Sequence record: MH752840.1
DNA from: Escherichia phage vB_EcoM-Pr121LW
Strand: one strand, 5' to 3'
Length of the DNA: 64,000 nt
Part shown: positions 10,809 to 33,465 of the stretch, piece after piece
How positions within the stretch are numbered: the first letter of the stretch is position 1
How the letters are laid out: each line of letters begins with the position of its first letter
The notes under the pieces: generated by a model
Told to the model about the DNA's origin: nothing
The model's input: only the letters and a program-made list of their open reading frames with translations
The model's database searches: none
Program-made: the position numbers and the translations under genes

Positions 10809-10819
10809 GAGGAGGTGTT

Positions 10820-11134
10820 GTGGAGTTGGATTTGGCGGCATTGTACGGTATCTGCATGGGTACCGTTGTCCCGATCTGTGTATGGGCTTTCAACCAGTGG
10901 CACACCAAATGGAAAGGCATTTCCAAGAGGTTGGATGAACTGGAGAAAGACCTCATCTTAGTGAAAAACAGTATGGTTACAAAAGATAAACTTGATTCCG
11001 TTATCGAGACCCGGTTAAGCAAGCTAGAGGCCGATATTAACGACCTTAAGCAGGATGTCAGGACAGATGTCTCCGGTATCCGAGCTGATGTACAAAAGAT
11101 TTTGCACATGCTCGTAGAGCATAGTAAAAGGTAA
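10820..11134 (+). CDS. small membrane-anchored coiled-coil protein
   Basis: 104 aa; GTG start 4 nt after AAGAGGAGG; N-terminal hydrophobic helix then heptad-like region. Confidence 0.45.
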   Translation: MELDLAALYGICMGTVVPICVWAFNQWHTKWKGISKRLDELEKDLILVKNSMVTKDKLDSVIETRLSKLEADINDLKQDVRTDVSGIRADVQKILHMLVEHSKR

Positions 11135-11144
11135 ACAAAGGTCA

Positions 11145-11176
11145 GGACGGAAAGGACTCCGTTCTTGCATTTTGTT
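11145..11176 (+). terminator. candidate rho-independent terminator
   Basis: 6-bp stem with one G-U pair (11145-11164), then TTGCATTTTGTT. Confidence 0.35.
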
Positions 11177-11223
11177 CACTAAAGTGTTAAAATAGTCCTA
11201 AGGAATTTTCTCAGGAGAACGTG

Positions 11224-12267: not shown

Positions 12268-12278
12268 AAAGAGGGTAA

Positions 12279-12545
12279 ATGAAACTAACTCAGTTTTTAT
12301 GGGGACTGGTTGCGGCATCTGATGACCCTACGAAAGTGTCCCAATCTAAGCTATGGTCAAACATAGGTATGGCGGTGATGACTGGGGTGTTTATTCATAT
12401 GGGGTATAATGATACGCTTCCTGAATGGTATGCGTGGATATATGCGCCTTCGGTAGCTTGCCCCCAGCTTATTAGCAAATTCATCTCGCTCCGGTGGGGT
12501 TGCCAGCACCCTGACCACGTTAAAAACGAAGAGCAAAAAGCTTAA
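12279..12545 (+). CDS. small hydrophobic protein
   Basis: 88 aa; AAGAGGG SD; hydrophobic segments; downstream of fibre paralogue B. Confidence 0.45.
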   Translation: MKLTQFLWGLVAASDDPTKVSQSKLWSNIGMAVMTGVFIHMGYNDTLPEWYAWIYAPSVACPQLISKFISLRWGCQHPDHVKNEEQKA

Positions 12546-12554
12546 GGAGAGATC

Positions 12555-14300: not shown

Positions 14301-14307
14301 TATATCT

Positions 14308-14336
14308 AACCGCTCCTGACGGGGCGGTTTTCTTAT
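14308..14336 (+). terminator. rho-independent terminator
   Basis: 7-bp stem CCGCTCC/GGGGCGG with one G-U pair, then TTTTCTT. Confidence 0.55.
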
Positions 14337-14348
14337 CTGGAGAACACA

Positions 14349-17300: not shown

Positions 17301-19985
17301 ATCATCATGACTGCACTGAGATCAAACATGGATGGGACATCCATGTCCATGCAAATTCCGGTAACAAACGGATACAAACGTGTTGTGATGATCATTAAGT
17401 GCGACCTGATAGGTAAACAAGTTCTTGCAGAAAACGGGACATCCACACATCCTTTTGAGATCGCTCTACACTATCAGTTTGCTGACTCACCTTTTGCAGG
17501 GGATAAGAGAATATCTGATACAGACGCACAGCGTTGTAAGAAAGTATTGTTGGGTGCAGGTTGGTGGTGGTATGAGTTTGATTTAACAGATAAATTCACC
17601 GACACGTCTAAAGTTGTAACAGGACTTCGTCTAGACTTTGGCGAGAACATGCACAAAGCTGTTTGTGATGGCACCTATGGTGACCCTACAATATACCTAA
17701 AATATGTTTCTTTTGAGCATCCGGAAGATGTTGTCTACGGTCCAAAACTGAGATTGTTTGGCAGCTGGATTGCAAAAGATAGGGTAGGTATGGGTAAGAA
17801 GGTAAGAGGGTTCTTGGTTGATGCAGGAACAGAAGACATGCTGGTTAATGCAGTATGGCCTGAATTACCTGGGACTCAGTGGGACAACTCAGCCAAATCT
17901 GTAAACTGGTTTAACATTCATAGGGCCATGTGGACCACTAACTGCTACTTGTGGAGAGAGCTTAACGATCAGGCCTTTGGCTTCAGCGATGGTAGAAGGA
18001 TGGCGATCATTTGCTGGACAACACTGCAAAGATGTTATGACCATAACTATGAGATTGGAGGCAGGGAATGGAAAAATATCAGGGACAGAATCATAACCAA
18101 TTTTGCAGACGACAACGGTGGCGGAGCACATAACTTTGGCACAAGCCGACTCATCCATTTGAACGGATCCTCAGCCTACAAGAAAGAAGGATACTCTGGG
18201 TCCATGATTGAGTGGGGTCTGGTAAAAGATGCTCGTGTGTTGATGGGTCAGCAACTTGCTGCTGCAATAGGGCCGAACGCAGTACAATCTGTTAAACCAG
18301 CGTGGTTCGATATCCCATTATGGTCATCTGGAACACCAGGAACTGCTGCAATCAACCCTGCCACTGGGGATTTGGAAATCTCCTGGGAAGACTTGAAGCA
18401 GGTCGGTGGTTGGGACAAAACAGGGTATCAGGTTCAGTGGTGGAGAGCTGACGGATCTTTAGCCGCTGATGAGTTTGTTAAGGACAATTTCTACACCATG
18501 TCCTCTGCAAAAGCACAGGAATTGTTCGGTCAGGCAACTCCGTCAACGATCACCATGTCCATGTGCTGTAAAGACAACAGGACTGGAGCTTTGGGGCCAA
18601 GGGTTGCTAAGGTTTTCTCAGGTATTAAATGGAATCCCTCTGTTCAAAGTGTTTCATGGAAGCAAATAGGTGATAACAAGCTGCTAGTTACCCCCGCCTG
18701 TCAGTTCAACGCAACTCTTAACGTTGATCCTGCTGCTGCGGCAAACTCAGCTAAAGCTTCTGACTTCTCTGTGTCTAACACTGCTATGGCAGATGTGAGG
18801 AAGATTGACACGCTGAACGCCAGAATTACCTGTAAAAACACTTATGGCACATTCCAGATCATCAACAACTTCACAGATGCTGATTCTAAGGTAGTGAGGA
18901 CAGCAAGCCAGACTCTGAGTTTAGGAACTCTGGCCTATGCAGCCCTGATCACTGAACAGTCGGCAACACTCCAAGGAGGTGGTGTAGGCAAGTCTATTAC
19001 AACACCTGTGTGGAAGCCAAATGAGTGGGTTGTGTTTGATTTGACTGTGGACTTCTCCAGTGATAATAACTGGACATGGGTAAGGGATTGCTTGTCACAA
19101 CTGATGGGTGGTCCAAGCTCCGTTAGTGATAGCCACGACTCCACTGACCCGAGTGTGTTTCAGGTGGGTAAAACTCACCCGGAGACTGGAGCAACTTTGC
19201 CTGACAGGAAGTATGCTTTGGTTTGCATCTCTTACGGAAAAGCAGATGTCACCTTCTCAGGAACACACACTTATAACGGTACATATAACTTCTCAAGGAA
19301 GTATAGTCTCAAGGCAGGGAACATTATAGATGAGGTTGGTCCGTTATATAACCCTGGCAACGGGATAGGGATTGTAGGCGGCAAACTGCAGATGCAGGAA
19401 CCTTCTATTACTCCTTCCAACGTGTCTGGGATCAGGAAGACTTGGGAAAGTAACAATACTGGCATCGCAACTGTGGATGCTACCACCGGACTGGTAACAT
19501 TTAAAGCTCCCGGTGATGTCACTATAACGTTTATAGTTACTGATGATGCAGGGCGCAAAACGTCTTCAACATCTTTTACTGTCAAACAGATGGCACCACA
19601 GTGGAGAATGTGGATAGGTACAGCAACAAACGGGGCATACCCTAATCCGGCAGGTACTTCTGGTATGAAGACTTTCTCTACAAGCGAACCGATGGAGTAC
19701 GGCAGCGGTCCTAAGGTAGGACAGATGGTATACTTTGGTGCGTATATTCCTGAAATTATAGGGCTTCCGAGAAGTCAGCTTCAGTTGCTGTTTGGGGCTG
19801 GTGTTGACGATCTTGCCACTTTCGGGTATAGCGACAACATCGAGGCTGCAAGGAGTTCAGGATGGGTAGGGTTCAGAATGGAGTCTGGAAAGGAAGGCAG
19901 GATTCTAGGGACAGCCTCTATAGGTGTTATGTTCCCTGGTGACCAGCAGTATCGCCTGAAAGCCTACGCAACTTTCTCTCTTTAA
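14349..19985 (+). CDS. large distal tail protein (1878 aa) with C-terminal Ig-like (Big_2-type) region
   Basis: Single long ORF; C-terminal segment VTFKAPGDVTITFIVTDDAGRKTSSTSFTV typical of bacterial Ig-like folds; last gene of late operon. Confidence 0.75.
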   Translation: MLPIPLLKLGRHFLDKRGGIKELAVLSYPIDNSDGTSNTVSYVNSLAILFDDGQLNITGYNRFGECRTGDLDTINYPNEAAWNVDHVWRADRAFVIRTFDNKFFYIGCTAGLIGSEAAGGNDVCVREWTPLPEQIVTGLHLDTHPERLVEVMGGVNNTVWVIAAPEADGMLHLYGSGNNTYGSLHVDKNQHATPVKIGETSESPETGPWKNPRINCEVHDNSVIFGGPNGFWIAGYDFLRNNSKNALVYPAEHVTLDQFKGIPVGETWKGFMCGPNGAIIATERMHKPDDQQLVNVFYGQDVWGDDTWRSLNITYTHEVIMARGYGTSGIFFNNGTKQYRGFSRNLCNDIGAQSANNNPRANFIHYRALATAKFVEQTEPVSWTESVYFQGIHREGFLGTFCVVNGKLWWSGIPRGSFSGSNNLFGGRLNSQGFTEIPENWYKNVPVDSWGIEDIFDVNGVSNASNIYIGDTVKMKLKPQPEGATFIIDKIELVNAAGTVVTDANYQFSTNWNHGGANEVVVTQYNRNINRRGLYSIKITYHDKHGTGRTYTTRTLNWNTIVPAYPSDGKWHTVGRNKQFHVNDTVYFGLNGTQPAVEGDTSYMVRLHRMDAGSVTYDVTQEIYDQRRATYDNIVKTQALWEFNPNGKGGKMLQVNEQNGTSLTVHEHPDPWPDPGKPHPGARTLKIVSHDAGYFGIRWEATVRYADGTTNNIGITLGGTSEDNSLKIAYTPRGISIDNMDVVRNGYGDVNVKVTLGEHLGGERIIMYAFDHDPRTNGTYANQAWSYLINAPEPNTKEFYYGMKRDVCKKTGTHDWIAICVKDERTAWDEPVNRWFIGIPTRSDKYVAEYIVCMGGTNLNLCWNEDANKYSDYDYMRDISCNQWFSQSTGYPPRQARVNPAIFTDTQVFLTKQANEVQTFKNKYDPNKWFYNCYGAFFWGPGELPGGGSCLNEATYASDYIMGQVKKYKIIPGPETLGNAVDPYIIMTALRSNMDGTSMSMQIPVTNGYKRVVMIIKCDLIGKQVLAENGTSTHPFEIALHYQFADSPFAGDKRISDTDAQRCKKVLLGAGWWWYEFDLTDKFTDTSKVVTGLRLDFGENMHKAVCDGTYGDPTIYLKYVSFEHPEDVVYGPKLRLFGSWIAKDRVGMGKKVRGFLVDAGTEDMLVNAVWPELPGTQWDNSAKSVNWFNIHRAMWTTNCYLWRELNDQAFGFSDGRRMAIICWTTLQRCYDHNYEIGGREWKNIRDRIITNFADDNGGGAHNFGTSRLIHLNGSSAYKKEGYSGSMIEWGLVKDARVLMGQQLAAAIGPNAVQSVKPAWFDIPLWSSGTPGTAAINPATGDLEISWEDLKQVGGWDKTGYQVQWWRADGSLAADEFVKDNFYTMSSAKAQELFGQATPSTITMSMCCKDNRTGALGPRVAKVFSGIKWNPSVQSVSWKQIGDNKLLVTPACQFNATLNVDPAAAANSAKASDFSVSNTAMADVRKIDTLNARITCKNTYGTFQIINNFTDADSKVVRTASQTLSLGTLAYAALITEQSATLQGGGVGKSITTPVWKPNEWVVFDLTVDFSSDNNWTWVRDCLSQLMGGPSSVSDSHDSTDPSVFQVGKTHPETGATLPDRKYALVCISYGKADVTFSGTHTYNGTYNFSRKYSLKAGNIIDEVGPLYNPGNGIGIVGGKLQMQEPSITPSNVSGIRKTWESNNTGIATVDATTGLVTFKAPGDVTITFIVTDDAGRKTSSTSFTVKQMAPQWRMWIGTATNGAYPNPAGTSGMKTFSTSEPMEYGSGPKVGQMVYFGAYIPEIIGLPRSQLQLLFGAGVDDLATFGYSDNIEAARSSGWVGFRMESGKEGRILGTASIGVMFPGDQQYRLKAYATFSL

Positions 19986-19991
19986 CAAGCG

Positions 19992-20030
19992 GTAAATAAA
20001 AAGGGGCCAAATGGCCCCTTTCTTTTTATA
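19992..20030. terminator. bidirectional rho-independent terminator between convergent operons
   Basis: AGGGGCC-AAAT-GGCCCCT hairpin (20002-20019) flanked by A-run upstream and T-run downstream. Confidence 0.75.
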
Positions 20031-20031
20031 A

Positions 20032-20232
20032 TTAGTAATATTCCCAACACGACCCATCTTCAGACGGCTGGACACGCTTGCCTTCATGATCGACATAGGT
20101 GTAACCGCAACCTTCGCAGATAACAGGTGCCGCATAACCTTCCTTCCACTGATCTTCTGTGATCAATCCTTCCAGATCTCTACAGTTAAAACCAAACAAC
20201 TCTTCAGAACAATCTTTGCAAAAATCAGCCAT
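20032..20232 (-). CDS. small zinc-ribbon protein
   Basis: 66 aa; CxxC…CxxC (CKDC, CEGC). Confidence 0.5.
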   Translation of the reverse strand: MADFCKDCSEELFGFNCRDLEGLITEDQWKEGYAAPVICEGCGYTYVDHEGKRVQPSEDGSCWEYY

Positions 20233-20235
20233 TTC

Positions 20236-20682
20236 TCAGTCCTCGCATTTAACAAATTTTTCTACAGATCCGCCAAGCACAGCTTGTTGCTTGATGGCAC
20301 TTGCTTCATCATAGTGGATAGACTTATGTTCCGTACCTCCAAACTTACCTGTGTGGAAGGTGTGCACCCAAATCTCTTTAGGAAGGGATTTATTCTCTTC
20401 CTCCACCAACTCCCACATACCCCACAAGTGATCTGTGATATCTTTGATGAAATATCCCTCTCCTAGGTTTGTATTCACACTATAGGCCGATTCGTGATTT
20501 CCGCAAATATAACGGAAGGCAGTGTACTCTTTTCCTGGTGTGAAGTGGGTATCCATTAGTATAGCTGTTAAAGAATAAGGGTCTCGAAAGCCCAAGAACT
20601 TTAGTTTAACAATTTCGACATTTACATCTGCAAGATTGTCCATGACGATCTCCTCTGTTTGGTTGGTGAGATAATCATACAT
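20236..20682 (-). CDS. hypothetical protein; candidate 2H phosphoesterase
   Basis: 148 aa; two H-x-T/S motifs (THFT at res 45-48, EHKS at 118-121) about 73 residues apart. Confidence 0.5.
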   Translation of the reverse strand: MYDYLTNQTEEIVMDNLADVNVEIVKLKFLGFRDPYSLTAILMDTHFTPGKEYTAFRYICGNHESAYSVNTNLGEGYFIKDITDHLWGMWELVEEENKSLPKEIWVHTFHTGKFGGTEHKSIHYDEASAIKQQAVLGGSVEKFVKCED

Positions 20683-20807
20683 AGATCTGATGTTAGGGTC
20701 AAGCTTAATTTTAAACTATTTTGGAGAGGTATTTTGTTCAGGAGGGTAATCACATAGGATAGGGCAATTTATGAAGGCACAGGCCTCTTTTGAGGCCTTA
20801 AAATCGA

Positions 20808-21188
20808 TTATGACACTTTGACGTAGCGCTCCGACAGAGCTGGAAAGCCAAAAGCAGTACCTATACTACCGTATGCTACCCACCATTGAAGTTCATCGTG
20901 ACACCATTTTCCGATCAGGAAGGTGCTGGGGTAGCGGGTCAGTATTTTGGCATAAGCTTTAGGGTCTGCATCCTCTGGGATAATGATGCTTGGAACATCT
21001 TTGTTATGACCACAGCAGCAGTTTAGAGTTTTCAGTCCTGCCGCCCATAGACTCATGATAGGCTTAGCCATGCACTTATCAAGGCACACACGTTTTTTGC
21101 CGTCTCGAAGTTTTTTAGGCACATCAACGATAACATTTGGATGCTTGGCACCTTTCACTTTCCAATTATAGGATTTACACTTGCACAT
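20808..21188 (-). CDS. Cys-rich hypothetical protein
   Basis: 126 aa; multiple Cys clusters (CKC, CLDKC, CCCGHN). Confidence 0.5.
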   Translation of the reverse strand: MCKCKSYNWKVKGAKHPNVIVDVPKKLRDGKKRVCLDKCMAKPIMSLWAAGLKTLNCCCGHNKDVPSIIIPEDADPKAYAKILTRYPSTFLIGKWCHDELQWWVAYGSIGTAFGFPALSERYVKVS

Positions 21189-21221
21189 CGTTTAATCAGT
21201 CTCCATCTAGAAAGCAATACT

Positions 21222-21392
21222 TTACTTAAAATCTTTGTCACCTATTACGATTGCACGAATCCACTCATTGTGATGTTCAATGGCGGTAAGGTGTAACATA
21301 ATGTAGTGATTGTCATTACTAAACACGGTGCGGTAAGCTTTAGCAGCACCATGATATAACTTCCACATCAGGTAATGATATCTTCGCCTCAT
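21222..21392 (-). CDS. small hypothetical protein (not in ORF track)
   Basis: 56-codon ORF; ATG 5 nt downstream of HAD gene stop; GGAG SD on minus strand. Confidence 0.25.
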   Translation of the reverse strand: MRRRYHYLMWKLYHGAAKAYRTVFSNDNHYIMLHLTAIEHHNEWIRAIVIGDKDFK

Positions 21393-21397
21393 GGCTC

Positions 21398-21868
21398 TTA
21401 CTCCGGTTCAGGATCTGGGTAATCTTCAATAATAAAGGTCCATCCGTTCCGCTTAGCCTCAGACTTATACTCAATCTCCTTCATTGCGAACTCTAACTGA
21501 TTTTTAGCCGGAATACATGCCGGAGAATCATCAATCCAAATATCCGGGTAGATATCAAACTGCGCCAGATAGGCTGCCTTCTGAACACCGCCAGTATAAA
21601 ACACACCAACATCGAGCTCCTTGCGCCAATACTCAATGTCCACGTTGTCTTGAGTGATGAATCGGGAAGTCACAAGGTATACTGTCCACCCTTCCTTTTT
21701 CAAGTCCCTAATCAGGCGGGAGAAGATGAAAGGACTCGCATTAAATGTTCCATCAAAGTCAATGGCAATGATGTGTGTGCCGTGGCGAGTCTCGTATGGA
21801 TTGCTTGTGGTAAGATTACTGTAGTTAAAAGGAACTTCTTCCCCGCAGTAGCTGTAGTCCATATTCAC
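21398..21868 (-). CDS. HAD-superfamily phosphatase (nucleotidase-like)
   Basis: 156 aa; HAD motif I IIAIDFDGTF, motif II VYLVTSR, motif IV IWIDDSP. Confidence 0.65.
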   Translation of the reverse strand: MNMDYSYCGEEVPFNYSNLTTSNPYETRHGTHIIAIDFDGTFNASPFIFSRLIRDLKKEGWTVYLVTSRFITQDNVDIEYWRKELDVGVFYTGGVQKAAYLAQFDIYPDIWIDDSPACIPAKNQLEFAMKEIEYKSEAKRNGWTFIIEDYPDPEPE

Positions 21869-22140
21869 ACCTTCTCGTTGATAAATTTACGGGCGGTTTG
21901 GTGAGTTGTTTCTGCTGTCTTCAGAATGATATTAATTTTATTGTCAAGATCATTCATCTCTGCAGTTAATTCAGGAATCTCTCCAGCATGCATAGTGAAA
22001 TCATACATAGACATGCCCAGAATCTCATTGATGCGACGGTTGCATTCTGCAGCACGCTGGTTCATTTTCCAAGCTAACACCAAAGCCTCCTGCGTAGCCT
22101 CTAGTGCAAAATCTAATACGTCTGCCTCTTCTTTCGTCAT
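21865..22140 (-). CDS. hypothetical protein
   Basis: 91 aa; overlaps downstream gene start by 4 nt. Confidence 0.45.
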   Translation of the reverse strand: MTKEEADVLDFALEATQEALVLAWKMNQRAAECNRRINEILGMSMYDFTMHAGEIPELTAEMNDLDNKINIILKTAETTHQTARKFINEKV

Positions 22141-22198
22141 CTCAGTCTCTCCTGTTGTATTGTTGGTAGGTGTATGAATACCTTATAACTCACCTTTT

Positions 22199-22765
22199 TT
22201 ATTCAAACTGCAATAGTAAGTCCACCACCGCGCTAGGTCTGTCAACAAATTCCCCAGGTCCACATGCCCACAGAGGGTATCCGTCCACATACCGCCAAAT
22301 CCAACCTGCAGTGTGGAGTTCGAGCAGGGCAGTACCGTCCTTACTGTCAACCACTCTTTCCCACAGTGTTGGGCAGCGAAGCTTGAGAATCGGATCACCT
22401 CCCTTATACCCGTCCATGTAGATACCTATTGCAAAGTTCAGCATCATCTTTTTGTGCACTGATCTCTTACTGAGGGTGCTCATCACTTCCTCTTTGTGAA
22501 TGTTTGTAAGCTTCTCTTTGGCTACCCGCAGATCGTTGCAACCATTGTTCAGCAGATCTTCCAGACACTTGATCCGGAGGTCGTGAATGTCTTTGTCGTG
22601 TACCGTTGGCACAGGGTCGTAGCGGTATAGCACTGTTGATACAAGGTTGCTCGGGTGTGGGTCTGACAGCAACCCATAACCCCAATACTCTTCTGTATCT
22701 GAAAGGACAAGACACCCAATGTCTCTGTCAAGCTTTCCTGTGTTGTAAGCCACATTGACCGCCAT
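22199..22765 (-). CDS. hypothetical protein
   Basis: 188 aa; longest ORF in interval, consistent operon strand. Confidence 0.5.
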   Translation of the reverse strand: MAVNVAYNTGKLDRDIGCLVLSDTEEYWGYGLLSDPHPSNLVSTVLYRYDPVPTVHDKDIHDLRIKCLEDLLNNGCNDLRVAKEKLTNIHKEEVMSTLSKRSVHKKMMLNFAIGIYMDGYKGGDPILKLRCPTLWERVVDSKDGTALLELHTAGWIWRYVDGYPLWACGPGEFVDRPSAVVDLLLQFE

Positions 22766-22767
22766 GA

Positions 22768-23013
22768 CTATAGCTCCACTAGCAAAGTGCTTTCAAAGTG
22801 CCGTTCATGCAGACCGTTGTAAGGGACCACTTCCACAACACCATCACGGACATACGGGGCCATCATCGTGGTATAATCTCCAAACGGGTTGGTATTGTCA
22901 CTAACCACAACCACCTTCTGCCCTTCCTTAGCAGAGTGCCAAATAGATCTACACTTCATCAGGTGTTCGAGAGCTCCAGGTAAAATTTTGTTACGTTCTT
23001 TACGGGTCTTCAT
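22768..23013 (-). CDS. hypothetical protein
   Basis: 81 aa; tight packing with neighbours. Confidence 0.45.
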   Translation of the reverse strand: MKTRKERNKILPGALEHLMKCRSIWHSAKEGQKVVVVSDNTNPFGDYTTMMAPYVRDGVVEVVPYNGLHERHFESTLLVEL

Positions 23014-23459
23014 AACAGATATAGCTCCTTATGAAAGTGGTCTTTTAATTTCTCACTGAGAAACTTCTTGATACCTTCCTCTAAAGTGTTTTCGATGTAG
23101 TCCAGCTTAACTGCTTCGATGGACATATCATAGATTGCCAGCTCTAAGCTGTCAAGTCCCATCATAGCATGAACCATAAGATTTTCATCTTCAGATACAT
23201 TCAGGGGACTTCCTATAACATCTGGAGGCAGAATAGTTTCCCAATTATTCTGGGTGGTAGTTCTCCCGCCATCTACTTTACGGCGCAGTTCGAATGTGTT
23301 CTTAGTGTAGAACACTTCATAAGAAACGATACGACTGTCACTCTCATAATAAACGAAGTTCAGGTAGGAGCCTAGCCGCAGTCGGCAAACTTCTACCCCA
23401 AACCATTGTTTCTTATAAGAATTCAGGCTAATGCTGTCGCATTCACGCTTGCTCAACAC
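23010..23459 (-). CDS. hypothetical protein
   Basis: 149 aa; 4-nt overlap with downstream gene. Confidence 0.5.
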   Translation of the reverse strand: MLSKRECDSISLNSYKKQWFGVEVCRLRLGSYLNFVYYESDSRIVSYEVFYTKNTFELRRKVDGGRTTTQNNWETILPPDVIGSPLNVSEDENLMVHAMMGLDSLELAIYDMSIEAVKLDYIENTLEEGIKKFLSEKLKDHFHKELYLL

Positions 23460-23475
23460 GGCTATCTCCTTTTTG

Positions 23476-23709
23476 TTAATCTTCGTAAATCAGGATTTCT
23501 GCTTTAGGTTTTCGTGCTTTCAAGTCCAGCTCTATCCAGTGCACCATGGCTGTTTCAAGAAAAACAGCTTGGATGCATCCGTCCTCAGCGTGCCCCACCA
23601 ACATAACAAGATCTTCACCTTCATCATCTGCATCACGAACATACAGAATCTCTCCAGATTCAAAGTCTTTCACAACCTGATTGCTGGATAATTTACGAAT
23701 TTTTGCCAT
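23476..23709 (-). CDS. hypothetical acidic protein
   Basis: 77 aa. Confidence 0.45.
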   Translation of the reverse strand: MAKIRKLSSNQVVKDFESGEILYVRDADDEGEDLVMLVGHAEDGCIQAVFLETAMVHWIELDLKARKPKAEILIYED

Positions 23710-23710
23710 A

Positions 23711-23974
23711 TCAGAAACCCTCTAAAAAGCTCTTGTAGAAAATAATTTCAGTGTCCACACCTGTCACGATCTTATCGTTTCGGATCTCATCTGTGAGGTA
23801 GGTATCGAAACGTAGTACTTGTGTGGTATTGTCACACATCCACTCAGCTGTGACCATAGCGAAAATCTTAGCATCTTCATTATCTGGTGTGAATGTTACC
23901 ACCTCGCCGCATTTAAACTTTTCGATAGGTTGTGTGTTAGCTTTCGGTTCTGCAATAGTGATTTTCGTGGTCAT
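23711..23974 (-). CDS. hypothetical protein
   Basis: 87 aa. Confidence 0.45.
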   Translation of the reverse strand: MTTKITIAEPKANTQPIEKFKCGEVVTFTPDNEDAKIFAMVTAEWMCDNTTQVLRFDTYLTDEIRNDKIVTGVDTEIIFYKSFLEGF

Positions 23975-24234
23975 TGCTCTTCCTCCATAGTTTCACCAAA
24001 TACTTCGATACGAGCATCGAGCTCGGTTGCTTTCAGCTCCCCAACAAAATATTTTAGTTCTTTCTCGTCCAGATCGTAAGCCCACACACAAGAAGAACAT
24101 GCCACAATCAGTAGCGTAGATACACGACCTGGCTCTGTGATCATGCTCACAATGGTTCCCACAGGGAACGTGTTGATAGCTTTTTTAACTGGGCGTTCAG
24201 CTTTAATTACTACCTCTGTTGCCATAAATAACAT
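23971..24234 (-). CDS. hypothetical protein
   Basis: 87 aa. Confidence 0.45.
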   Translation of the reverse strand: MLFMATEVVIKAERPVKKAINTFPVGTIVSMITEPGRVSTLLIVACSSCVWAYDLDEKELKYFVGELKATELDARIEVFGETMEEEQ

Positions 24235-24240
24235 CCTCTC

Positions 24241-25722
24241 TTACTTAGCGTACTCGATTAATTCCACAGTTTTACCAAAGCTAGGGATATAATTTTTATT
24301 ATACCCTTCGGTTAGAACCCATAAAGTATCGTACTTTTTCCACTTGTTGTCAACAGCCTTTTGTTCAAAGTTATGCTCAAAGTATAGGTCGGTCAGGACG
24401 ATGACATCTTTTGCATTCGGTATGTTAGCATCCAGATACTCGAACACGCAAGCAGCTGTTGTGCCCCATGTTGAGTGGACCTCATAGTTGATCATCTCGT
24501 CTATGTTGCCGCGAGTGTATACTTTAACCTCTCCAACCTCAGTTGACCAACAGAACATTGTAACCTTAAACTCTTTATACAGATTGCACAATCCTGTGAT
24601 TTCATTGAACATTTTCTTTAAAGTTCTTTGAGAGATCGAGCCAGAAACGTCCAAAGCCACCACAATATCTATAGTGTTTTCCGGATTACGACCAGGAACA
24701 ATAACGTGTTGGTTCTTGTTTATAGCTCCGACTTTTCGCATTGTGCTGGTCAAAGACCCAGATCGGCGACCAGGTTTTCTGTAGGTCAGTTCGGCCTTTC
24801 TTTTAGACAACATACGCTGCTTGATGATGTCTATATAATTGATTACAGGCTTACCTCTATTCTTGACAAACTCACGAACCGCCTCAGGGCAACGACCTCC
24901 GGAAGCTTGCATTGCTGCCTCAAGCATGTCACCAGAGTCCTGCATGGCCTGATCTTTATCAGATTGGCTGATTACAGGTTGTGGCTGATCATACCCCATC
25001 GCCTTTCCAAGATCATCACTAGTGCCACCGTTACCACTCATGTGATCGTCGGTTTGTCGTTTATCTCCTTGAGAGTTCTCGCCTTTACCGCTCTTACTTT
25101 TACCGTTATTCTGATCTCTTTGCTTATCAAGAACTGCATAAACGTTCTCAGCAATCCATCCATGAAACTTCATGTCGCAGTAGCAGCTGGCTAAGAAGCC
25201 AAAAGGCTTACCTTTCACGAACGTAGTGCTTTTCCCCTTCGGGAAGAAAACACAAGGAGGTTTGCTAAAGTCAACCACAAGGCCTGTGTTGATAACGTGA
25301 TCACAAGCAATATTGAACAGTTCCGGCTCAAAGCTTTTACCACGGACCAGGTGATCACAGATAATATGCCCCACCTCATGTGACAGAAGGAAGGCCACCT
25401 CTTTCACAGATTTTGGGGAATAGAAAACTTCAGCCATCTCAAACTGCTCGTCAGTTAGAGAAGCCTTAAGAATAGCCTTGCGTTCATCAGCCAATCCCAT
25501 AATGAACTCAGGACTGTAATAGATGCGTTTATGGTCGGTTGCCATGGTGGAGCACCATGTGTGGTTTTCTACGAACTGCAACCCTGACAGTAGTGTGCCA
25601 TAAAACGGCAGCTTTTCAAGGAGATACATACGTGCAGCCTGCAACATTCTCAGGGCATCATCTTTCTGTGAGGTAATGATTTCTGAACTTCTGCTATCCA
25701 TTAAAACTCCAGAAGGGGCCAT
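24241..25722 (-). CDS. VWA-domain protein with N-terminal HExxH metallopeptidase-like domain
   Basis: 493 aa; HEVGHIICDH zinc-binding motif; MIDAS-type VVALDVSGSIS in C-terminal half. Confidence 0.8.
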   Translation of the reverse strand: MAPSGVLMDSRSSEIITSQKDDALRMLQAARMYLLEKLPFYGTLLSGLQFVENHTWCSTMATDHKRIYYSPEFIMGLADERKAILKASLTDEQFEMAEVFYSPKSVKEVAFLLSHEVGHIICDHLVRGKSFEPELFNIACDHVINTGLVVDFSKPPCVFFPKGKSTTFVKGKPFGFLASCYCDMKFHGWIAENVYAVLDKQRDQNNGKSKSGKGENSQGDKRQTDDHMSGNGGTSDDLGKAMGYDQPQPVISQSDKDQAMQDSGDMLEAAMQASGGRCPEAVREFVKNRGKPVINYIDIIKQRMLSKRKAELTYRKPGRRSGSLTSTMRKVGAINKNQHVIVPGRNPENTIDIVVALDVSGSISQRTLKKMFNEITGLCNLYKEFKVTMFCWSTEVGEVKVYTRGNIDEMINYEVHSTWGTTAACVFEYLDANIPNAKDVIVLTDLYFEHNFEQKAVDNKWKKYDTLWVLTEGYNKNYIPSFGKTVELIEYAK

Positions 25723-25729
25723 TGGCCCC
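25713..25729 (-). promoter_or_regulatory. hairpin AGGGGCC-AAT-GGCCCCT spanning SD and start codon of VWA gene
   Basis: Near-identical to the bidirectional terminator palindrome at 20003-20019; start codon of 24241..25722 lies in the loop/stem. Confidence 0.35.
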
Positions 25730-25734
25730 TGTCA

Positions 25735-26775
25735 TTATTTAACGTGTTTGAAAATACCTGCCAACTCGGTCATTGTCATGCGGGTGGTCTTCATAAGATC
25801 TGTCATAGCTTTCTCCATAATTGGAGATACTACCATAAAGTTTCCTTTAGTGAAACCTTTATTCCAGTCGGTCACCAACAGTGGTTTAAGTCCAGCTCCG
25901 AGACGTTCACCAGTTAAAGCACAGCATTTGCGAATATACGAACTCTTAAATTGGCTGAACGACAGATCAACTTTCATACCTGCATCGTAGAACGTTTGAC
26001 AATAGAAAGTGTAAGCCTTAGCAATCTCAACATCATCAGGCAGTGCAGGAACCTCTTCTGCAATCCCCTCTTCGACCTCCTGAGGCTCTTTTTCCTCTTC
26101 AGAGTTCTGTTCTTCAACTTCTTCTGTCACAGTCTCGTTCACGATGTCTGAAATGTGTTTGTTGGCTGCACGATCAGCCATGAAATTTTTAAAGTCCTGC
26201 ATTGGTGACATATCTTCTTCCTCTTCGTCAAATAGTGCTAGTTTATCTTCTTCTGTCCCGTATTGCAAGATGAAATCTTCAAAAGTATAATCACCTTTCA
26301 ATTTCTCCATACGCTCTTCGCTCAGGTGGAGCATCATCTGCTGGACAATTTTTCGATCAGTTTTGTCTTTAATCAGGATTGCAGTCTTTTTATCTACCAG
26401 ACAGTCTTTCAGAGCATTGCACCTCAACCCTACCACACAACAATTGTCAATTGCGTAAGGACCTTCATCATCTATACGCTCCAAAGATGGGTAGAAAGGA
26501 TTTCCCAGCCCGTTTTCATCTGTGTGCATGTCAAAAGGTATAAGGGTATAGTCGCATACTCCATCTCCTAAAAGTTTTTTACCAAATAGGAGGTATTCTT
26601 CCCATGACAGGTTGAACTCTATATCTCGTTTCCGTGCATTATTCTGTTTGCGTCTATATTTTTTAAGCAGGCGCTCTAACTCTTCTGGTGTATAATATTT
26701 TTCAAGATTCATGCGTTGTCTCTCGTGCTCTGTAAGTGAAGAAATCGTATCAATTGTTTCAATAGATGTCAACAT
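25735..26775 (-). CDS. hypothetical protein with acidic linker
   Basis: ORF track 25735..26778 (TTG); ATG 26775 preferred; acidic EEEEDMSP/EEVEEQNSEEEKE stretch; first gene of minus operon. Confidence 0.55.
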   Translation of the reverse strand: MLTSIETIDTISSLTEHERQRMNLEKYYTPEELERLLKKYRRKQNNARKRDIEFNLSWEEYLLFGKKLLGDGVCDYTLIPFDMHTDENGLGNPFYPSLERIDDEGPYAIDNCCVVGLRCNALKDCLVDKKTAILIKDKTDRKIVQQMMLHLSEERMEKLKGDYTFEDFILQYGTEEDKLALFDEEEEDMSPMQDFKNFMADRAANKHISDIVNETVTEEVEEQNSEEEKEPQEVEEGIAEEVPALPDDVEIAKAYTFYCQTFYDAGMKVDLSFSQFKSSYIRKCCALTGERLGAGLKPLLVTDWNKGFTKGNFMVVSPIMEKAMTDLMKTTRMTMTELAGIFKHVK

Positions 26776-26785
26776 CAAAAACGTG

Positions 26786-26814
26786 TTGACTTTACTCTAA
26801 ATCTCCGATATAGT
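26786..26814 (+). promoter_or_regulatory. sigma70-like promoter TTGACT-17-TATAGT
   Basis: -35 at 26786-26791, -10 at 26809-26814, in the divergent intergenic region 41 nt upstream of ATG 26855. Confidence 0.6.
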
Positions 26815-26854
26815 GCACCCATTCGAAAGAAAACTAACATAGGAGCACTTACTT

Positions 26855-27754
26855 ATGGCAAATCTTAACAGTTTTAGTACGCGGTGGAAACAGGACATAA
26901 CAACCAATCTTTCAGCTGGGGACATCCTTTCTGCAATTTACGAGGCTTTAGATGATAAAGCTACTTCAAAAGCGGTTTGTACCAACCCACTAATTCCTGT
27001 AGTGATGAAGGTTATTGAGCGTAGATTGGTATCTGGGTCTGATAAGTGGACATATTTAGATAATGAAGGACACACCTATTCCAATGGGTATGTCGATATA
27101 AAAGTAGAATACGCGGTATCATACCGCCGGAGCGGTTCTGTAACTTTCAACTTCTCTGGAGGTTTTCGATCTCTGGCTACCTCACCTTTTGTTTCCTCAG
27201 AGGAGAAGTATGAGCTGCCATTTCTTTGGATGATGGCTAACGCGACAGGAAAAACCCCCGTTAGCATCCGAGTAAAATACAACTACAACGGATCTAGTAA
27301 GATCTATGCCGAAAGTGTCTCAGCAAGTTTTTATTTTGTGATGGGGGATGGAATCCTCAAACATATAAAGATGTGCGATATGCATGATGTTATAAATGAA
27401 GTGACTGATAAGAATGTTCTAGTGAAAGACCTCAACAATTTTTATACACCCGGAGACTATTACGTCAGCCGTCCACTGTGCATCTTTAATGCCGCACACC
27501 CTCTAGGTGAGTATTTGATCGCCAATAGCGATATTGCCAATAACCGCTTCGAGGTAGCAAGAGTTCAGAATGAGGTATTGACATCTTGCAAGAGCGGTGA
27601 TACGTTTACCGAAGAAGAGATGGGTGTTTTAGAAATGATGGGATATAAGTGTAGCCTTTGGGTAGATGAGGTGTTTAATGATTGCATCTATGGACAGGAT
27701 ATTTACCCATTAAAGAAGTATACTGATACAAGTTTAATTTATGCGAGGGTTTGA
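26855..27754 (+). CDS. hypothetical protein
   Basis: 299 aa; AGGAG SD; first gene of + strand early operon. Confidence 0.55.
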   Translation: MANLNSFSTRWKQDITTNLSAGDILSAIYEALDDKATSKAVCTNPLIPVVMKVIERRLVSGSDKWTYLDNEGHTYSNGYVDIKVEYAVSYRRSGSVTFNFSGGFRSLATSPFVSSEEKYELPFLWMMANATGKTPVSIRVKYNYNGSSKIYAESVSASFYFVMGDGILKHIKMCDMHDVINEVTDKNVLVKDLNNFYTPGDYYVSRPLCIFNAAHPLGEYLIANSDIANNRFEVARVQNEVLTSCKSGDTFTEEEMGVLEMMGYKCSLWVDEVFNDCIYGQDIYPLKKYTDTSLIYARV

Positions 27755-29083: not shown

Positions 29084-29353
29084 ATGTTATACCAGCAATA
29101 TGAACTTCGTGCAGAAAAAGAGTTAAATTTTGACAAAGATATTCACAGATATTATTATGGGAAAGTTAGAGGGCAAGCAAGAAAGTGTACTCCAACACTC
29201 TTTTATGCCAGCAGACGACTAGCGCCAGAAGAGGCAACAGCAGAAAGGGTTGCGTACAACTGGAGAGTCACGTATGATATTGACAGATCCGATGTGATAT
29301 CTGTTTTGGAAAACTTTGAAAACACTTACACACAAGTAGAGGACTTTTACTAA
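29084..29353 (+). CDS. hypothetical protein
   Basis: 89 aa; GGAG SD. Confidence 0.5.
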   Translation: MLYQQYELRAEKELNFDKDIHRYYYGKVRGQARKCTPTLFYASRRLAPEEATAERVAYNWRVTYDIDRSDVISVLENFENTYTQVEDFY

Positions 29354-30537
29354 TGTCAAGAAACGTATTTGAAAGTGGTCAAATCACTGTCCGTGAGTTG
29401 CCAGCTATCATTCAGTTTGCCCAGCGTCATAACCGATCTGTCCTGATTTTAGGACCAATGGGCGTGGGAAAGAGCCAAGTGATGAAGCAGATCGCCGATA
29501 ATATGTTCGGTGAGCGAGATGATAACTTGGTTGACGTGCGACTGTCAGATAAAGATCCTGCCGACTTATCTGGGCTACCTATCCCTGTAGAAGCGGATGG
29601 AACTACACGTACAGTATTTGCAATTCCAGAATTTTGGCCTGCGGATCCTGACTGGAGCGGAATTATCTTTCTGGATGAGCTCACTCATGCAGATAACTAC
29701 CTGCAAAAGGTTGCAATGCAAATTATGCTCGACCACAAGTGCGGTACCTATGCATTCCCTAAGGGTTCTGTTTTTGTGGCTGCTGGTAACCGTTCTACAG
29801 ATGGTGCGGTTCTTTCGGCGCTCGAAGCCCCTCTGGCTAACCGTTTTATCATTGTAGAAGTTACAAGCAATGCAGAGGTGTTTATTGAGGACTACGCATT
29901 CCTTAATGGGGTGCACTCCTCTGTAATTGGATATCTGAAAAGAGTTCCATCAGCTATCGATAATTATGAGGCCATGGCTGAGATTAATTGTCCATCTTTT
30001 GCCACACCACGATCTTGGGTTGCTGCATCTGATATCTTGCACGATTTTGACAGCGGTATTATTTCTGACGCTATGGCCCGTGTTCTTCTGCAAGGTGCTA
30101 TCGGTCACACTGCAGCGGTAGAGATCTGGACTTACCACACCAAGAAACGCAACTTACCGGAAATCGGTCGGATTATGGCAGGAGGTTGCAAAGAATATGT
30201 AGGTCCTAAACAGCCAGACATCTTGTGGATTCTTGGATCTGAAGGCTGTATCGCTATTCGTAATATGATGGAAAATGCAAGTATCTCCGACGAAGATCTT
30301 GTTAGCTGTGTGGCAAACTTCCTCGATTTCCTTTGGGAAAACTTCAAGGACGAGAACCGAGATTTTGTATTCTCGGTCTTTATGGCGATGATGAAACCTA
30401 ATGCCTTAGGAAATGCCTTGCTTATCGGTAAAGGTCGTGACAAGATTGTTGCTCAGCTGATCAAAGCATACCCAAACCTGATGAAGATTGTAAAAGAGTT
30501 TGGTGAAGAGTTTAGCGCCATTTTGGCTAAAGCTTAA
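29353..30537 (+). CDS. AAA+ ATPase, MoxR/AAA_5-like
   Basis: 394 aa; Walker A LILGPMGVGKSQ; Walker B IIFLDELTHA; sensor region AAGNRSTDG. Confidence 0.8.
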   Translation: MSRNVFESGQITVRELPAIIQFAQRHNRSVLILGPMGVGKSQVMKQIADNMFGERDDNLVDVRLSDKDPADLSGLPIPVEADGTTRTVFAIPEFWPADPDWSGIIFLDELTHADNYLQKVAMQIMLDHKCGTYAFPKGSVFVAAGNRSTDGAVLSALEAPLANRFIIVEVTSNAEVFIEDYAFLNGVHSSVIGYLKRVPSAIDNYEAMAEINCPSFATPRSWVAASDILHDFDSGIISDAMARVLLQGAIGHTAAVEIWTYHTKKRNLPEIGRIMAGGCKEYVGPKQPDILWILGSEGCIAIRNMMENASISDEDLVSCVANFLDFLWENFKDENRDFVFSVFMAMMKPNALGNALLIGKGRDKIVAQLIKAYPNLMKIVKEFGEEFSAILAKA

Positions 30538-30975: not shown

Positions 30976-31476
30976 GTGAAAATTAAGATCTTTGCTATTA
31001 TTTTGAGCGCATTTTTATCGCTGCCTGTTGTTGCAGCACCAAAACAAAAAGTATACCATACTTGCAAGCCATCAGATACTAAGGAAAACATTCTAGCATG
31101 CAATATCTACAGGGAAGCTAGAGGGGATGGCACGATGGGTATGCTGGCATCTGGGTTTGCCACCCTAAACAGGAAATCTCATCCCAAATACCCAGACACT
31201 ATAAGAAAGATTGTCTACCAACCTAATCAGTTTTCGTGGACAAACTACGGCAAAACTTTTAAGGTGACAGAAAAAGATTCATGGGATCACGCTAAAAGTC
31301 TTGCAAAGATGCTTCTAAAGGTCTATAATAACAACCATGTTGCATACATGGCTATGGATATAACAGGTGGAGCAACACACTACCATACAACCAAAGTACG
31401 ACCGAAATGGGCAAAAAAGATGCAGAGGACAGCTCAATTCGGGAGCCATATCTACTACAAGGAGCGCAATAAATGA
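30976..31476 (+). CDS. secreted cell-wall hydrolase, SleB/Hydrolase_2-like
   Basis: 166 aa; N-terminal signal peptide MKIKIFAIILSAFLSLPVVAAP; motifs CNIYREARGDG…MLASGFATLNR…YQPNQFSW. Confidence 0.7.
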   Translation: MKIKIFAIILSAFLSLPVVAAPKQKVYHTCKPSDTKENILACNIYREARGDGTMGMLASGFATLNRKSHPKYPDTIRKIVYQPNQFSWTNYGKTFKVTEKDSWDHAKSLAKMLLKVYNNNHVAYMAMDITGGATHYHTTKVRPKWAKKMQRTAQFGSHIYYKERNK

Positions 31477-33455: not shown

Positions 33456-33465
33456 GGAGACAGCT

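Follow-up and report, generated by a model that had tools for sequence, protein, structure and literature searches.

What is the run of minus-strand genes that interrupts the plus-strand order of Escherichia phage vB_EcoM-Pr121LW (MH752840.1): an accessory, counter-defence island, as originally predicted, or a regular part of the phage genome? The window, a 64,000-nucleotide stretch of this genome, is that of an rV5-like Vequintavirus. According to the ORF list, 14 tightly packed minus-strand genes occupy positions 20032-26712 (~6.7 kb) between two long plus-strand runs. The GC skew also supports the predicted opposite-strand unit: it is negative only between 20 and 27 kb, and positive at 1-20 kb and from 27 up to about 63 kb. 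All 14 ORFs match a PHROG family (E 1e-33 to 1e-135), and are therefore real genes, whereas the fifteenth gene allowed for in the original prediction is due to an overlapping ORF that was called in the rV5 record. A strong bidirectional terminator separates the block from the late tail-fibre operon, on which it converges; at its other end, a back-to-back sigma-70 promoter pair (26744-26814) lies between it and the divergent rightward arm (rIIA-like, MoxR and Pif1/Dda-like helicase genes).

Gene set and gene order are those of rV5 ORFs 11-26, with 95.6% nucleotide identity. In rV5, Kropinski et al. 2013 (PMC3606486) had defined 'genes 11-26' as one transcription unit, with precisely the same boundaries and an Srd-like first gene. 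The block is this already published, largely ordinary unit, and its reading as a mobile counter-defence island is not supported. The window represents another isolate, and the two records differ in some details. In the rV5 record ORF11 starts further downstream, ORF12 starts at a different ATG, and g2 is frameshifted (ORF12/13), whereas it is intact in the window. We placed the start of g1 at ATG 26712 and not at TTG 26778, because the leftward promoter would fall inside the extended ORF. For g2, ATG 25701, which has a GGAG Shine-Dalgarno sequence, was preferred over 25722, because the ATG at the latter position is inside a hairpin loop and is missing from two relatives. The features are listed in Table 1.

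Table 1. Genes and expression signals of the minus-strand block and its surroundings (positions in the window)
Feature	Position	Strand	Description	Family, basis or elements
g1	25735..26712	-	325 aa, Srd-family protein	BLASTP and HHalign vs T4 Srd
g2	24241..25701	-	486 aa, zincin metallopeptidase (HEVGH) fused to vWA domain (DVSGS MIDAS motif)	
g3	23971..24234	-	87 aa, acidic, polymorphic slot	
g4	23711..23974	-	87 aa, acidic	phrog_12861
g5	23476..23709	-	77 aa, acidic	phrog_12046
g6	23010..23459	-	149 aa	phrog_6790, labelled 'tail protein'
g7	22768..23013	-	81 aa	phrog_4868
g8	22199..22765	-	188 aa, genus-specific	phrog_12232 only
g9	21865..22140	-	91 aa, acidic	phrog_12604
g10	21398..21868	-	156 aa, probable minimal (cap-less) HAD-superfamily phosphatase	
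g11	21222..21392	-	56 aa, basic	phrog_12006
g12	20808..21188	-	126 aa, basic, Cys/His-rich, large uncharacterised family	
g13	20236..20682	-	148 aa, polymorphic mosaic slot	
g14	20032..20232	-	66 aa, acidic, CxxC...CxxC zinc-ribbon-like (rV5 ORF26)	phrog_2210, E 2e-35
ATPase	29353..30537	+	MoxR-type AAA+ ATPase, inferred g2 partner, beyond the block on the rightward arm	
Leftward promoter	26744..26774	-	sigma-70, extended -35	TGTTGACA 26774-26767, 17 nt, TACGAT 26749-26744
Rightward promoter	26784..26814	+	sigma-70, drives the opposite arm	TGTTGACT 26784-26791, 17 nt, TATAGT 26809-26814
Terminator	19993..20028	.	bidirectional, intrinsic, common to the block and the late lateral tail-fibre gene (14349-19985)	
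Hairpin	25714..25730	-	GC-rich, in the g1-g2 spacer	AGGGGCC-AAT-GGCCCCT, then UCUGGAGUUUU

Both the terminator and the divergent promoter that had been predicted at the ends of the block were found. The terminator has a GC-rich stem and T-runs on both strands (z -3.6 and -4.4); the site carries two terminators in the rV5 annotation and is also described in PMC3606486. The promoter coordinates had to be corrected: because the g1 start was moved to 26712, the promoter region of the block spans about 26713-26854, not 26779-26854. The -35 boxes of the two promoters form an inverted repeat. The leftward promoter, in which TG precedes the -10 box, is P11 of the rV5 annotation. Sequences of the form TGTTGAC-N16-19-TANNNT occur 10 times in the window (0.58 expected), and the TGTTGAC -35 box agrees with the consensus put forward for early promoters in Certrevirus (PMC7344957). 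An enrichment was also seen for the rV5 'late' motif (18 copies vs 6.4 expected); ten of these copies belong to the tail-fibre module, on the plus strand, and just one is on the strand of the block. Promoter type places the block in the early region rather than between the late and early modules, where it had been put originally. The rV5 authors reported sigma-70-like promoters throughout the genome (PMC3606486), thus timing is not fixed by promoter type alone. The term 'early' is used here on the basis of promoter sequence and neighbouring genes only, and the literature search returned no transcriptome or proteome time course for any Vequintavirinae phage.

Further signals were found inside the block. 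A candidate promoter for g3 (TGTTGACA-17-GATACT) occupies positions 24325-24355. The TGTTGACA box of the rV5 'P20' promoter (22240-22247) has a spacer of 20-21 nt and is therefore non-canonical. The hairpin in the g1-g2 spacer is kept in all five Vequintavirus loci compared, in one of them with a stem mismatch, and it may serve as an attenuator, or as a 3'-end or RBS structure.

The first gene, g1, encodes an N-domain, an acidic linker (27 D/E in 80 aa) and a probable second, degenerate Srd-like domain, an architecture that is kept across four genera. In comparisons with T4 Srd, BLASTP gave E 3e-7 for the N-domain and E 1e-3 for the C-domain, and HHalign gave 96.6% (E 7e-10) and 64% (E 6.5e-5), respectively. 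The homology is limited to about 90-130 N-terminal residues with 24-26% identity, which include the motifs C-x-Y-(T/S) and S-L-E-R-(I/F)-D ... G-Y ... G-N; no Pfam HNH or EndoVII match was found. Both genes are in early-type regions under host promoters. T4 Srd is shorter (248 aa), and its C-terminal half is helical, where g1 has the linker and the second domain instead. T4 Srd was formerly postulated to be a sigma-70/sigma-S decoy. It stimulates RNase E (PMC7430671), and g1, by analogy, would bind and stimulate the host enzyme, speeding host mRNA decay.

The HAD phosphatase of the original prediction probably corresponds to g10. Residues D37, D39, T41, K97, D113 and D114 are invariant, and T67 is nearly so, in 41 diverse homologues, but none of the database matches was statistically significant, and all Pfam and NCBIfam models scored under threshold. 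The four catalytic motifs and the modelled Rossmannoid b-a-b-a-b-a-b core (pLDDT 60) are shared with cap-less/class B acid phosphatases (AphA; PDB 2obb), and the weak matches in sequence (2obb, E 0.15; AphA, E 0.26) and in fold (Foldseek: CopA P-domain, 3mpo, AphA) are all to HAD members. Unlike those phosphatases, the g10 family has a short conserved core of about 100 aa. The two predicted Cys-rich proteins, g12 and g14, were confirmed at the level of motifs. The g12 family has neither a Pfam model nor a solved relative. In g14 (6 Cys, pI 4.1) DNA-level matches of 67-70% were detected in FelixO1-like and T5-like phages.

Neither a function nor a domain could be assigned to the other nine small products (g3-g9, g11 and g13), in agreement with the original prediction. 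No membrane segment was predicted in any of the 14 proteins, and 11 are acidic. The stop of g9 overlaps the start of g10 by 4 nt, and g9 itself is preceded by a 58-nt spacer with a good Shine-Dalgarno sequence. The least conserved small gene is g11 (82% identity to rV5). For g8, there was no match in Pfam, NCBIfam or PADLOC. In g13, which would be 135 aa long with the start given in the annotations of rV5 and the BASEL phages (ATG 20643), residues 25-94 and 104-146 match separate PHROGs. Neither g8 nor g13 showed similarity to Acb1 of T4, and the predicted 2H phosphoesterase failed all tests run.

Are these genes nevertheless an accessory island, whose small proteins inhibit host immune systems and whose content turns over between relatives? 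Most products are small, acidic, soluble and without known function, a host-type promoter could fire straight after injection, and for 9 of the 14 genes no counterpart was detected in the other Vequintavirinae genera that were compared. Two slots, and only these, are polymorphic: the window-type g3 is present in 73 records and replaced by two divergent g3-like copies (35-40% identity) in 44, whereas the window-type g13 is present in about 85 records, with a two-gene replacement in others, and its C-terminal 45 aa also occur in unrelated coliphages. However, at least 80% of the block is present in 113 sequenced Vequintavirus relatives with 90-97% identity (96.8% in the closest records), its genes show no more divergence than the flanks, and in GC content it is like the remaining window. 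Near-fixed content, which would speak against the original prediction, was thus seen in the genus but not in the subfamily, and no structural or replication gene was found in the block. The largest genes, g1, g2 and g10, are conserved in the subfamily and housekeeping-like: g1 and g2 head the block, with the same layout, in four other genera (the divergent layout was seen in a Seunavirus-like phage, Mydovirus and Avunavirus), and g10 was also found in the Seunavirus-like phage and Mydovirus. In Av-05, a gene annotated as 'Lar-like restriction alleviation protein' is located between the g1 and g2 homologues. This position would fit an island, but no block product, g14 included, resembles the Lar-like protein, and with the exception of the Srd-like domain of g1 none matches PADLOC models or PHROG anti-defence categories. 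Moreover, an exceptional sensitivity to restriction-modification has been reported for Vequintavirinae, as has the fact that they are commonly hit by Abi systems (PMC8594841). An island therefore appears unlikely.

The VWA/metallopeptidase protein predicted earlier is g2 (Pfam DUF2201_N, E 3e-28; DUF2201, E 4e-11), homologues of which occur in 670 phage records, including Vequintavirinae, RaK2/121Q-type jumbo phages (28% identity) and N4-like phages. In the phage form of MoxR AAA+/vWA pairs described by Iyer et al. 2021 (PMC7824862), the vWA protein carries an N-terminal metallopeptidase; likewise, g2 combines a DUF2201_N zincin with HExxH and a vWA domain with an intact DxSxS MIDAS, and the genome also encodes a cognate ATPase. 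The latter has weak AAA/AAA_5 Pfam matches, below threshold for every AAA family, but it shares 50-53% identity with the protein annotated 'ATPase' in other genera, is labelled 'MoxR ATPase' in YP-6, and is homologous to the ATPases whose genes immediately precede that of the g2 homologue in an N4-like phage (E 8e-18) and in Certrevirus CR9. The two genes are adjacent and co-directional in N4-like phages and in CR9, whereas here they are split over opposite arms of the divergent promoter, ~3.6 kb apart.

Iyer et al. proposed that in group 2.2 jumbo phages this domain pair acts in virion assembly, with tail assembly of Acidianus two-tailed virus as the MoxR-vWA precedent (PMC7824862); in that case the g2/MoxR pair would not serve early takeover. 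The pair, possibly with g6, would then be a chaperone/protease for virion assembly and structural-protein maturation, and the block would be tied in function to the late tail-fibre module, which it abuts. The conservation of the pair in 670 lytic phage genomes fits such a core function, and weak homologues of g6, the family of which is labelled 'tail protein', come right after g2 in the gene order of the Seunavirus-like phage and Avunavirus. However, 'tail protein' is a PHROG family name, for which experimental support in rV5 was not found (PMC3606486), and none of gp11-26, g6 included, is among the virion proteins named there. Taking into account also that the late-type motif is absent before the block, that the N4-like pair is located beside a Dda-like helicase in the replication region and not with structural genes, and that the ATPase of rV5-like phages lies among rIIA-like and helicase genes, support of morphogenesis seems quite improbable.

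From the architecture, conservation, domain content and AAA+/vWA linkage observed here, we consider it reasonably probable that two divergent operons are read here by host RNA polymerase (sigma-70), and that the block, as their leftward arm, is a vertically inherited early host-takeover/auxiliary operon. It resembles early host-takeover blocks such as T4 srd-modA-modB in its dense small acidic soluble ORFs, strong host-type promoters and Srd-family gene, but lacks an ADP-ribosyltransferase, Alc-like or other characterised takeover gene. We infer timing, substrates and every biochemical activity from the sequence. Transcription would start at the TGTTGACA-17-TACGAT promoter (26774-26744), cross the 14 translationally packed genes and end at the terminator common to the tail-fibre operon, and the weaker internal promoter candidates and the hairpin after g1 may tune relative expression. 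In such an operon, g2 and the MoxR-type AAA+ ATPase would form an ATP-driven remodelling/processing pair and g10 would act as a minimal HAD phosphatase on some phospho-substrate, whereas the remaining small, mostly acidic soluble products would be genus-specific early proteins, with the g3 and g13 slots exchanging alleles between isolates. Most likely, the block has been inherited vertically as part of the genus genome and belongs to the early, pre-replicative programme.

The 14 genes of the block, numbered from g1 at the head to g14, are tightly packed minus-strand ORFs at 20032-26778 with long plus-strand runs on either side, and 20-27 kb is the only part of the window where GC skew is negative. 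This layout, together with the hairpin at the left end and the promoters at the right end, shows that the opposite-strand block with a terminator and divergent promoters at its ends, as outlined in the original prediction, is real and was correctly described. The predicted extent of 20032-26778 held for the 14 ORFs but not for the upstream end: g1 starts at ATG 26712 (325 aa), and a TTG-extended ORF would contain the leftward promoter. The start of g2 was assigned to ATG 25701 (486 aa), which is served by the Shine-Dalgarno sequence GGAG. ATG 25722 was rejected as g2 start: it belongs to a conserved hairpin, where it occupies the loop, and two relatives lack it. All 14 ORFs matched PHROG families (E 1e-33 to 1e-135), 11 of the products are acidic, and none has membrane-like segments. 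An Rfam scan of the block matched no RNA family, and a repeat scan found two hairpins and nothing further. Coordinates of the features are collected in the table.

Features of the minus-strand block and its surroundings, with occurrence in relatives according to the presence/absence matrix
Feature	Coordinates (strand)	Description	Occurrence
Tail-fibre gene	14349-19985	late gene, left flank	
Left-boundary hairpin	19993-20028	bidirectional terminator, GC-rich, T-runs on both strands; -18.7 and -19.6 kcal/mol; z -3.6 and -4.4	
g14	20032-20232 (-)	Cys-rich	
g13	20236-20682 (-)	two-module mosaic	
g13 C-terminal module	20236-20372 (-)	about 45 aa	
g12	20808-21188 (-)	candidate metal-binding family	
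g10	21398-21868 (-)	probable minimal HAD phosphatase	Seunavirus-like phage, Mydovirus
g8	22199-22765 (-)		
g6	23010-23459 (-)		Seunavirus-like phage, Avunavirus
Sigma-70-type match	23127-23155 (-)	TTGACA-17-TATGAT, inside g6, 114 nt upstream of g7 start	
g3	23971-24234 (-)	variable slot	
g2	24241-25701 (-)	vWA-like/zincin protein	every genus checked, plus N4-like phages
g1-g2 hairpin	25714-25730 (-)	AGGGGCC-AAT-GGCCCCT, 7-bp GC-rich stem	
g1	25735-26712 (-)	Srd-family protein	four genera, Vequintavirus included
Other nine block genes	(-)		Vequintavirus only (among these relatives)
Right boundary	26744-26814	two sigma-70 promoters back to back; TGTTGAC -35 boxes form an inverted repeat	
ATPase	29353-30537 (+)	394-aa AAA+ protein, rightward arm	every genus checked, plus N4-like phages
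SleB-type cell-wall hydrolase	30976-31476 (+)	rightward arm	
GHKL-ATPase protein	within 31473-34671 (+)	660 aa	
Pif1/Dda-like helicase	34671-36041 (+)	rightward arm	

The architecture of the block is already known. Using 19500-27500 as query, megablast matched 121 phage records, nearly all of them from Vequintavirus phages of Escherichia (rV5, FV3, Murica and Bas48-59 of BASEL included), and 112 of the 121 cover 80% or more of the query, with identities of 90-97%. The rV5 reference (DQ832317, 5957-13982) matched with 100% coverage and 95.6% identity; its ORF11-ORF26 are collinear with the block gene for gene and sit between the tail-fibre gene and a 'fucosyltransferase-like' gene. Kropinski et al. 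(2013) proposed four transcription units for rV5, 'genes 11-26' among them, and described a bidirectional terminator at one end of this unit and bidirectional sigma-70 promoters at the other (PMC3606486). The block shares gene order, bidirectional terminator and back-to-back promoters with that unit, for which the boundaries and the Srd-like first gene have been on record since 2013. The rV5 virion proteins that PMC3606486 names do not include any of gp11-26. Sixteen GenBank records of 'Campylobacter phage' (MG0656xx, host Campylobacter jejuni) are 95-97% identical, over its full length, to the block of this rV5-like E. coli phage; host mislabelling or contamination of those stocks seems likely.

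The block had been taken for an accessory island of the kind that carries counter-defence genes. At the genus level this interpretation is largely wrong, since neither patchy presence nor variable content was found. In a sensitive blastn search at least 80% of the block was covered in 113 of about 120 Vequintavirus records, and the lowest coverage in a full genome was about 90%. Compared with rV5, two BASEL phages and YP-6, the most divergent member, the individual genes have 90-100% amino-acid identity, on par with the C-terminus of the tail-fibre protein and with the genes of the rightward arm (the plus-strand genes across the divergent promoters). Nucleotide identity to YP-6 was 91.3% for the block and 89.9% and 93.4% for the flanks, and the GC content of the block (0.40-0.48) is like that of the rest of the window. 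Variation among the relatives is confined to the slots of g3 and g13. At the g3 slot, 73 records have the window-type gene and 44 have two divergent g3-like genes; at the g13 slot, about 85 records have the window-type gene and others a two-gene replacement. Mutual paralogy of g3, g4 and g5 was rejected, as an all-against-all comparison gave no significant matches. The additional genes of some relatives are g3-like only.

The presence/absence data also argue against a counter-defence reading of the block as a whole. Such a role may still apply to the nine small proteins specific to the genus, although no positive evidence speaks for it. Comparisons with PHROGs, Pfam, NCBIfam and PADLOC revealed no homologue of a characterised anti-defence protein among the block products, the PADLOC and NCBIfam scans giving sub-threshold noise only. 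Direct comparisons with Acb1 and with a Lar-like protein were negative, g14 and g12 were rejected as Lar-like restriction alleviation proteins, and no mapped anti-defence gene in the block was found in the literature searched. In the BASEL study Vequintavirinae were exceptionally susceptible to RM systems and frequently hit by Abi systems (PMC8594841).

The best-supported reading of the block is a conserved early operon. The motif TGTTGAC-N16-19-TANNNT occurs 10 times in the window (0.58 expected), and the unit begins at a consensus-like host promoter of this TGTTGAC class, which resembles the putative early promoter of Certrevirus (PMC7344957). The rV5 'late' motif TGGTAAAATA was found 18 times in the window with at most one mismatch (6.4 expected); 10 of the 18 matches lie in the tail-fibre module (1-19000) on its plus strand, and the motif is nearly absent from the strand of the block. 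Such a distribution is consistent with a phage-specific late promoter. The T4-type late promoter TATAAATA was not enriched. Among the genes of the opposite arm are rIIA-like, MoxR and Pif1/Dda-like helicase genes. Taking into account the host promoter class, the distribution of the late motif and the gene content of the opposite arm, we infer that the unit belongs to the early region. The literature searched contained no Vequintavirinae transcriptome. On the rightward arm, the GHKL-ATPase protein matches rIIA-annotated genes in Av-05 and in an N4-like phage, and the 401-aa ORF that follows may, by its position, be the rIIB counterpart. The internal rV5 promoter 'P20' is doubtful because its spacer is 20-21 nt long. 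The best sigma-70 match in the whole block (11/12) lies inside g6; it could either be an internal promoter or have arisen by chance. Two other candidate promoters are at 24325-24355 and 20674-20702.

Homology to T4 Srd links the N-terminal domain of g1 with the Srd N-terminus (BLASTP E 3e-7, 143 columns; HHalign probability 96.6%, E 7e-10), and g1 matched phrog_1400 and phrog_4592. The C-terminal half of Srd does not align to that of g1, which instead has a length-variable acidic linker (27 acidic residues in 80) and a second segment with a weaker match to the same stretch of Srd (E 1e-3; HHalign 64%, E 6.5e-5). Because the direct comparison between the two g1 segments was marginal (E 0.047), g1 can be regarded only as a probable tandem Srd-domain protein. 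According to the account of Qi et al. (2015) in PMC7430671, T4 Srd stimulates RNase E and speeds host mRNA decay, and binding to the N-terminal half of RNase E is a property reported there for Srd from T4 alone. The label 'HNH endonuclease' carried by g1 and g2 in PHROG and RefSeq derives from the PHROG family name; neither protein matched the curated HNH or Endonuclease_7 models of Pfam and NCBIfam at E<=0.1. A single-sequence PDB search with g1 found nothing.

The predicted VWA/metallopeptidase protein was borne out in g2, which combines a zincin domain (DUF2201_N, PF13203, E 3.4e-28) with a visible HEVGH (HExxH) motif and a vWA-like domain (DUF2201, PF09967, E 3.6e-11) with an intact MIDAS motif (DVSGS for DxSxS). 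Homologues of g2 were found in 670 phage records, among them those of RaK2/121Q-type jumbo phages and of many N4-like podoviruses. A MoxR/vWA-metallopeptidase pair was described in jumbo phages by Iyer et al. (2021), who suggested that it serves virion assembly and processing (PMC7824862). In the window the candidate partner is the AAA+ ATPase of the rightward arm, 3.6 kb from g2 and on the other strand; its matches to AAA_5 and to all other AAA models were below threshold, and the name MoxR comes from the annotation of the YP-6 record only. It is homologous (E 8e-18) to the ATPase of an N4-like Klebsiella phage, where the gene order is ATPase, vWA-peptidase, Dda-like helicase. Certrevirus CR9 has the ATPase gene immediately upstream of its g2 homologue, in the same orientation. 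At both loci (L010, 8696-11542, and L008, 2454-4697) the two genes are adjacent and co-directional, whereas in Vequintavirus, a Seunavirus-like phage, Mydovirus and Avunavirus they lie on opposite arms of a divergent promoter. The two layouts imply an inversion in the common ancestor of the four genera with the split arrangement, and the divergent promoter would allow co-regulation of g2 and the ATPase. The g2 homologue of the rV5 reference (DQ832317, 6269-7748) is broken into the overlapping ORF12 and ORF13 by a frameshift near residue 423. Since g2 is intact in the window and in every other relative examined, a sequencing error in the rV5 reference is likely.

The divergent layout is kept in the Seunavirus-like phage, Mydovirus and Avunavirus, with g1 and g2 homologues heading one arm and the ATPase (about 400 aa) on the other. 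In these genera the arm headed by g1 and g2 is much longer, and its annotated genes include nudix, DenV-like, GrcA-like and endoribonuclease genes, a content typical of early or auxiliary regions. The Salmonella phage record PQ002171.1, filed under Demerecviridae, has the Vequintavirinae divergent layout and homologues of g1, g2, g10 and the ATPase that are 42-50% identical; its taxonomy line looks wrong.

The spacer between g1 and g2 (33 nt) contains a hairpin, followed by UCUGGAGUUUU, which holds the g2 Shine-Dalgarno sequence. The stem is almost identical to that of the terminator at 20 kb, and each of the five Vequintavirus loci examined has kept the hairpin. Possible roles are those of an attenuator, a protector of the 3' end of the g1 message or a translational element.

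For the HAD phosphatase predicted in the block, identified here with g10, the motifs were confirmed but a significant family or structure match was not obtained. HAD motifs I (DxDxT), II (T/S), III (K) and IV (DD) are present in order; among 41 homologues (24-69% identity) D37, D39, T41, K97, D113 and D114 show no variation and T67 almost none. The family comprises at least 369 proteins, mostly about 100 aa long. Many members of this core family are from marine metagenomes (Tara, JGI). Pfam gave no match to g10, no family member has a precomputed Pfam domain, and the match to NCBIfam HAD-IIB (E 0.022) was below the model cut-off. A single-sequence PDB search found nothing, nor did a profile of the 5 close relatives that were all the first word-indexed homologue search had yielded; the 41-sequence profile gave weak HAD-type matches (2obb, E 0.15, full length; AphA, E 0.26). 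The AF2 model (pLDDT 60) has a Rossmannoid core. Foldseek with this model returned nothing at E<=1e-3, the non-significant HAD-type matches (CopA P-domain, 3mpo, AphA) being mixed with generic Rossmann folds. The database matches are weak but all lead in the direction of HAD, and g10 is probably a minimal HAD phosphatase.

The two Cys-rich or zinc-ribbon proteins of the prediction correspond to g14 and g12, both with a conserved Cys/His ligand pattern. The acidic g14 has a CxxC...CxxC arrangement and 6 Cys, and occurs also in FelixO1-like and T5-like phages. In g12, four positions (C4, C58, C59 and H61) are fixed among 40 family members and two more (C2 and C39) almost so, the invariant signature being CxCxSxN...DxC...LW...T...CCGH. 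As the family is without a Pfam model and without a solved or predicted structural neighbour, it is a candidate new metal-binding domain family. It includes at least 692 clusters at 50% identity, with members mostly of about 100 aa. The 2H phosphoesterase, also proposed for the block, found no support: no product matched a 2H model of Pfam or NCBIfam, and there was no similarity to T4 Acb1, itself a 2H enzyme. A 2H protein should have two HxT/Sx motifs within one domain of about 150-190 aa. Of the two proteins considered, g8 has a single HxS, and g13 has HFTP, HESA and HKSI but is a mosaic of two modules that occur elsewhere as separate small ORFs, the second half being replaced in part of the genus. 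Unrelated coliphages share the C-terminal module of g13 with 42-55% identity; most of them are small, about 43-52 kb, like NBD2, Rogue1 and AKS96. The gene overlapping this type of module is labelled 'putative fusion protein' in some coliphage records, which suggests a mobile mini-domain.

The early operon would encode an Srd-family protein and one partner of a MoxR/vWA-metallopeptidase machine, together with a minimal HAD phosphatase and small proteins specific to the genus. A bolder reading, which taken as a whole we consider improbable, makes its head a two-pronged early host-remodelling module. The g1 protein, with tandem Srd domains and an acidic linker that resembles nucleic acid, would act to re-programme either RNase E or the degradosome, and the MoxR ATPase and vWA-zincin, co-fired by the back-to-back promoters, would unfold and cleave a specific host protein rather than serve virion assembly; at the same time g12, as a new Cys/His metal-binding fold, and g10, as a minimal HAD of about 100 aa, would found two widespread families, both absent from Pfam. 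If true, such a module would be one not characterised in any phage.

The main value of the present check is negative: when a virulent phage has small ORFs grouped in a block on the opposite strand, presence/absence data are needed before the block is called a counter-defence island. Besides the rV5 unit, the MoxR/vWA-peptidase pair was also already known, from jumbo phages, in 2021. What is new is limited to the corrected starts of g1 and g2, the probable tandem arrangement of Srd domains, the AAA+/vWA linkage in its split form, the hairpin between g1 and g2, and two protein families still to be curated. MoxR and vWA-peptidase genes are linked in three unrelated phage lineages, and their split layout around a divergent promoter in Vequintavirus and three related genera makes an easy target for co-expression and pull-down. 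For a phage group that is therapeutically popular and poorly studied, the split MoxR/vWA-peptidase pair, the probable tandem-domain Srd homologue and curation of the g12 and g10 families are the leads.
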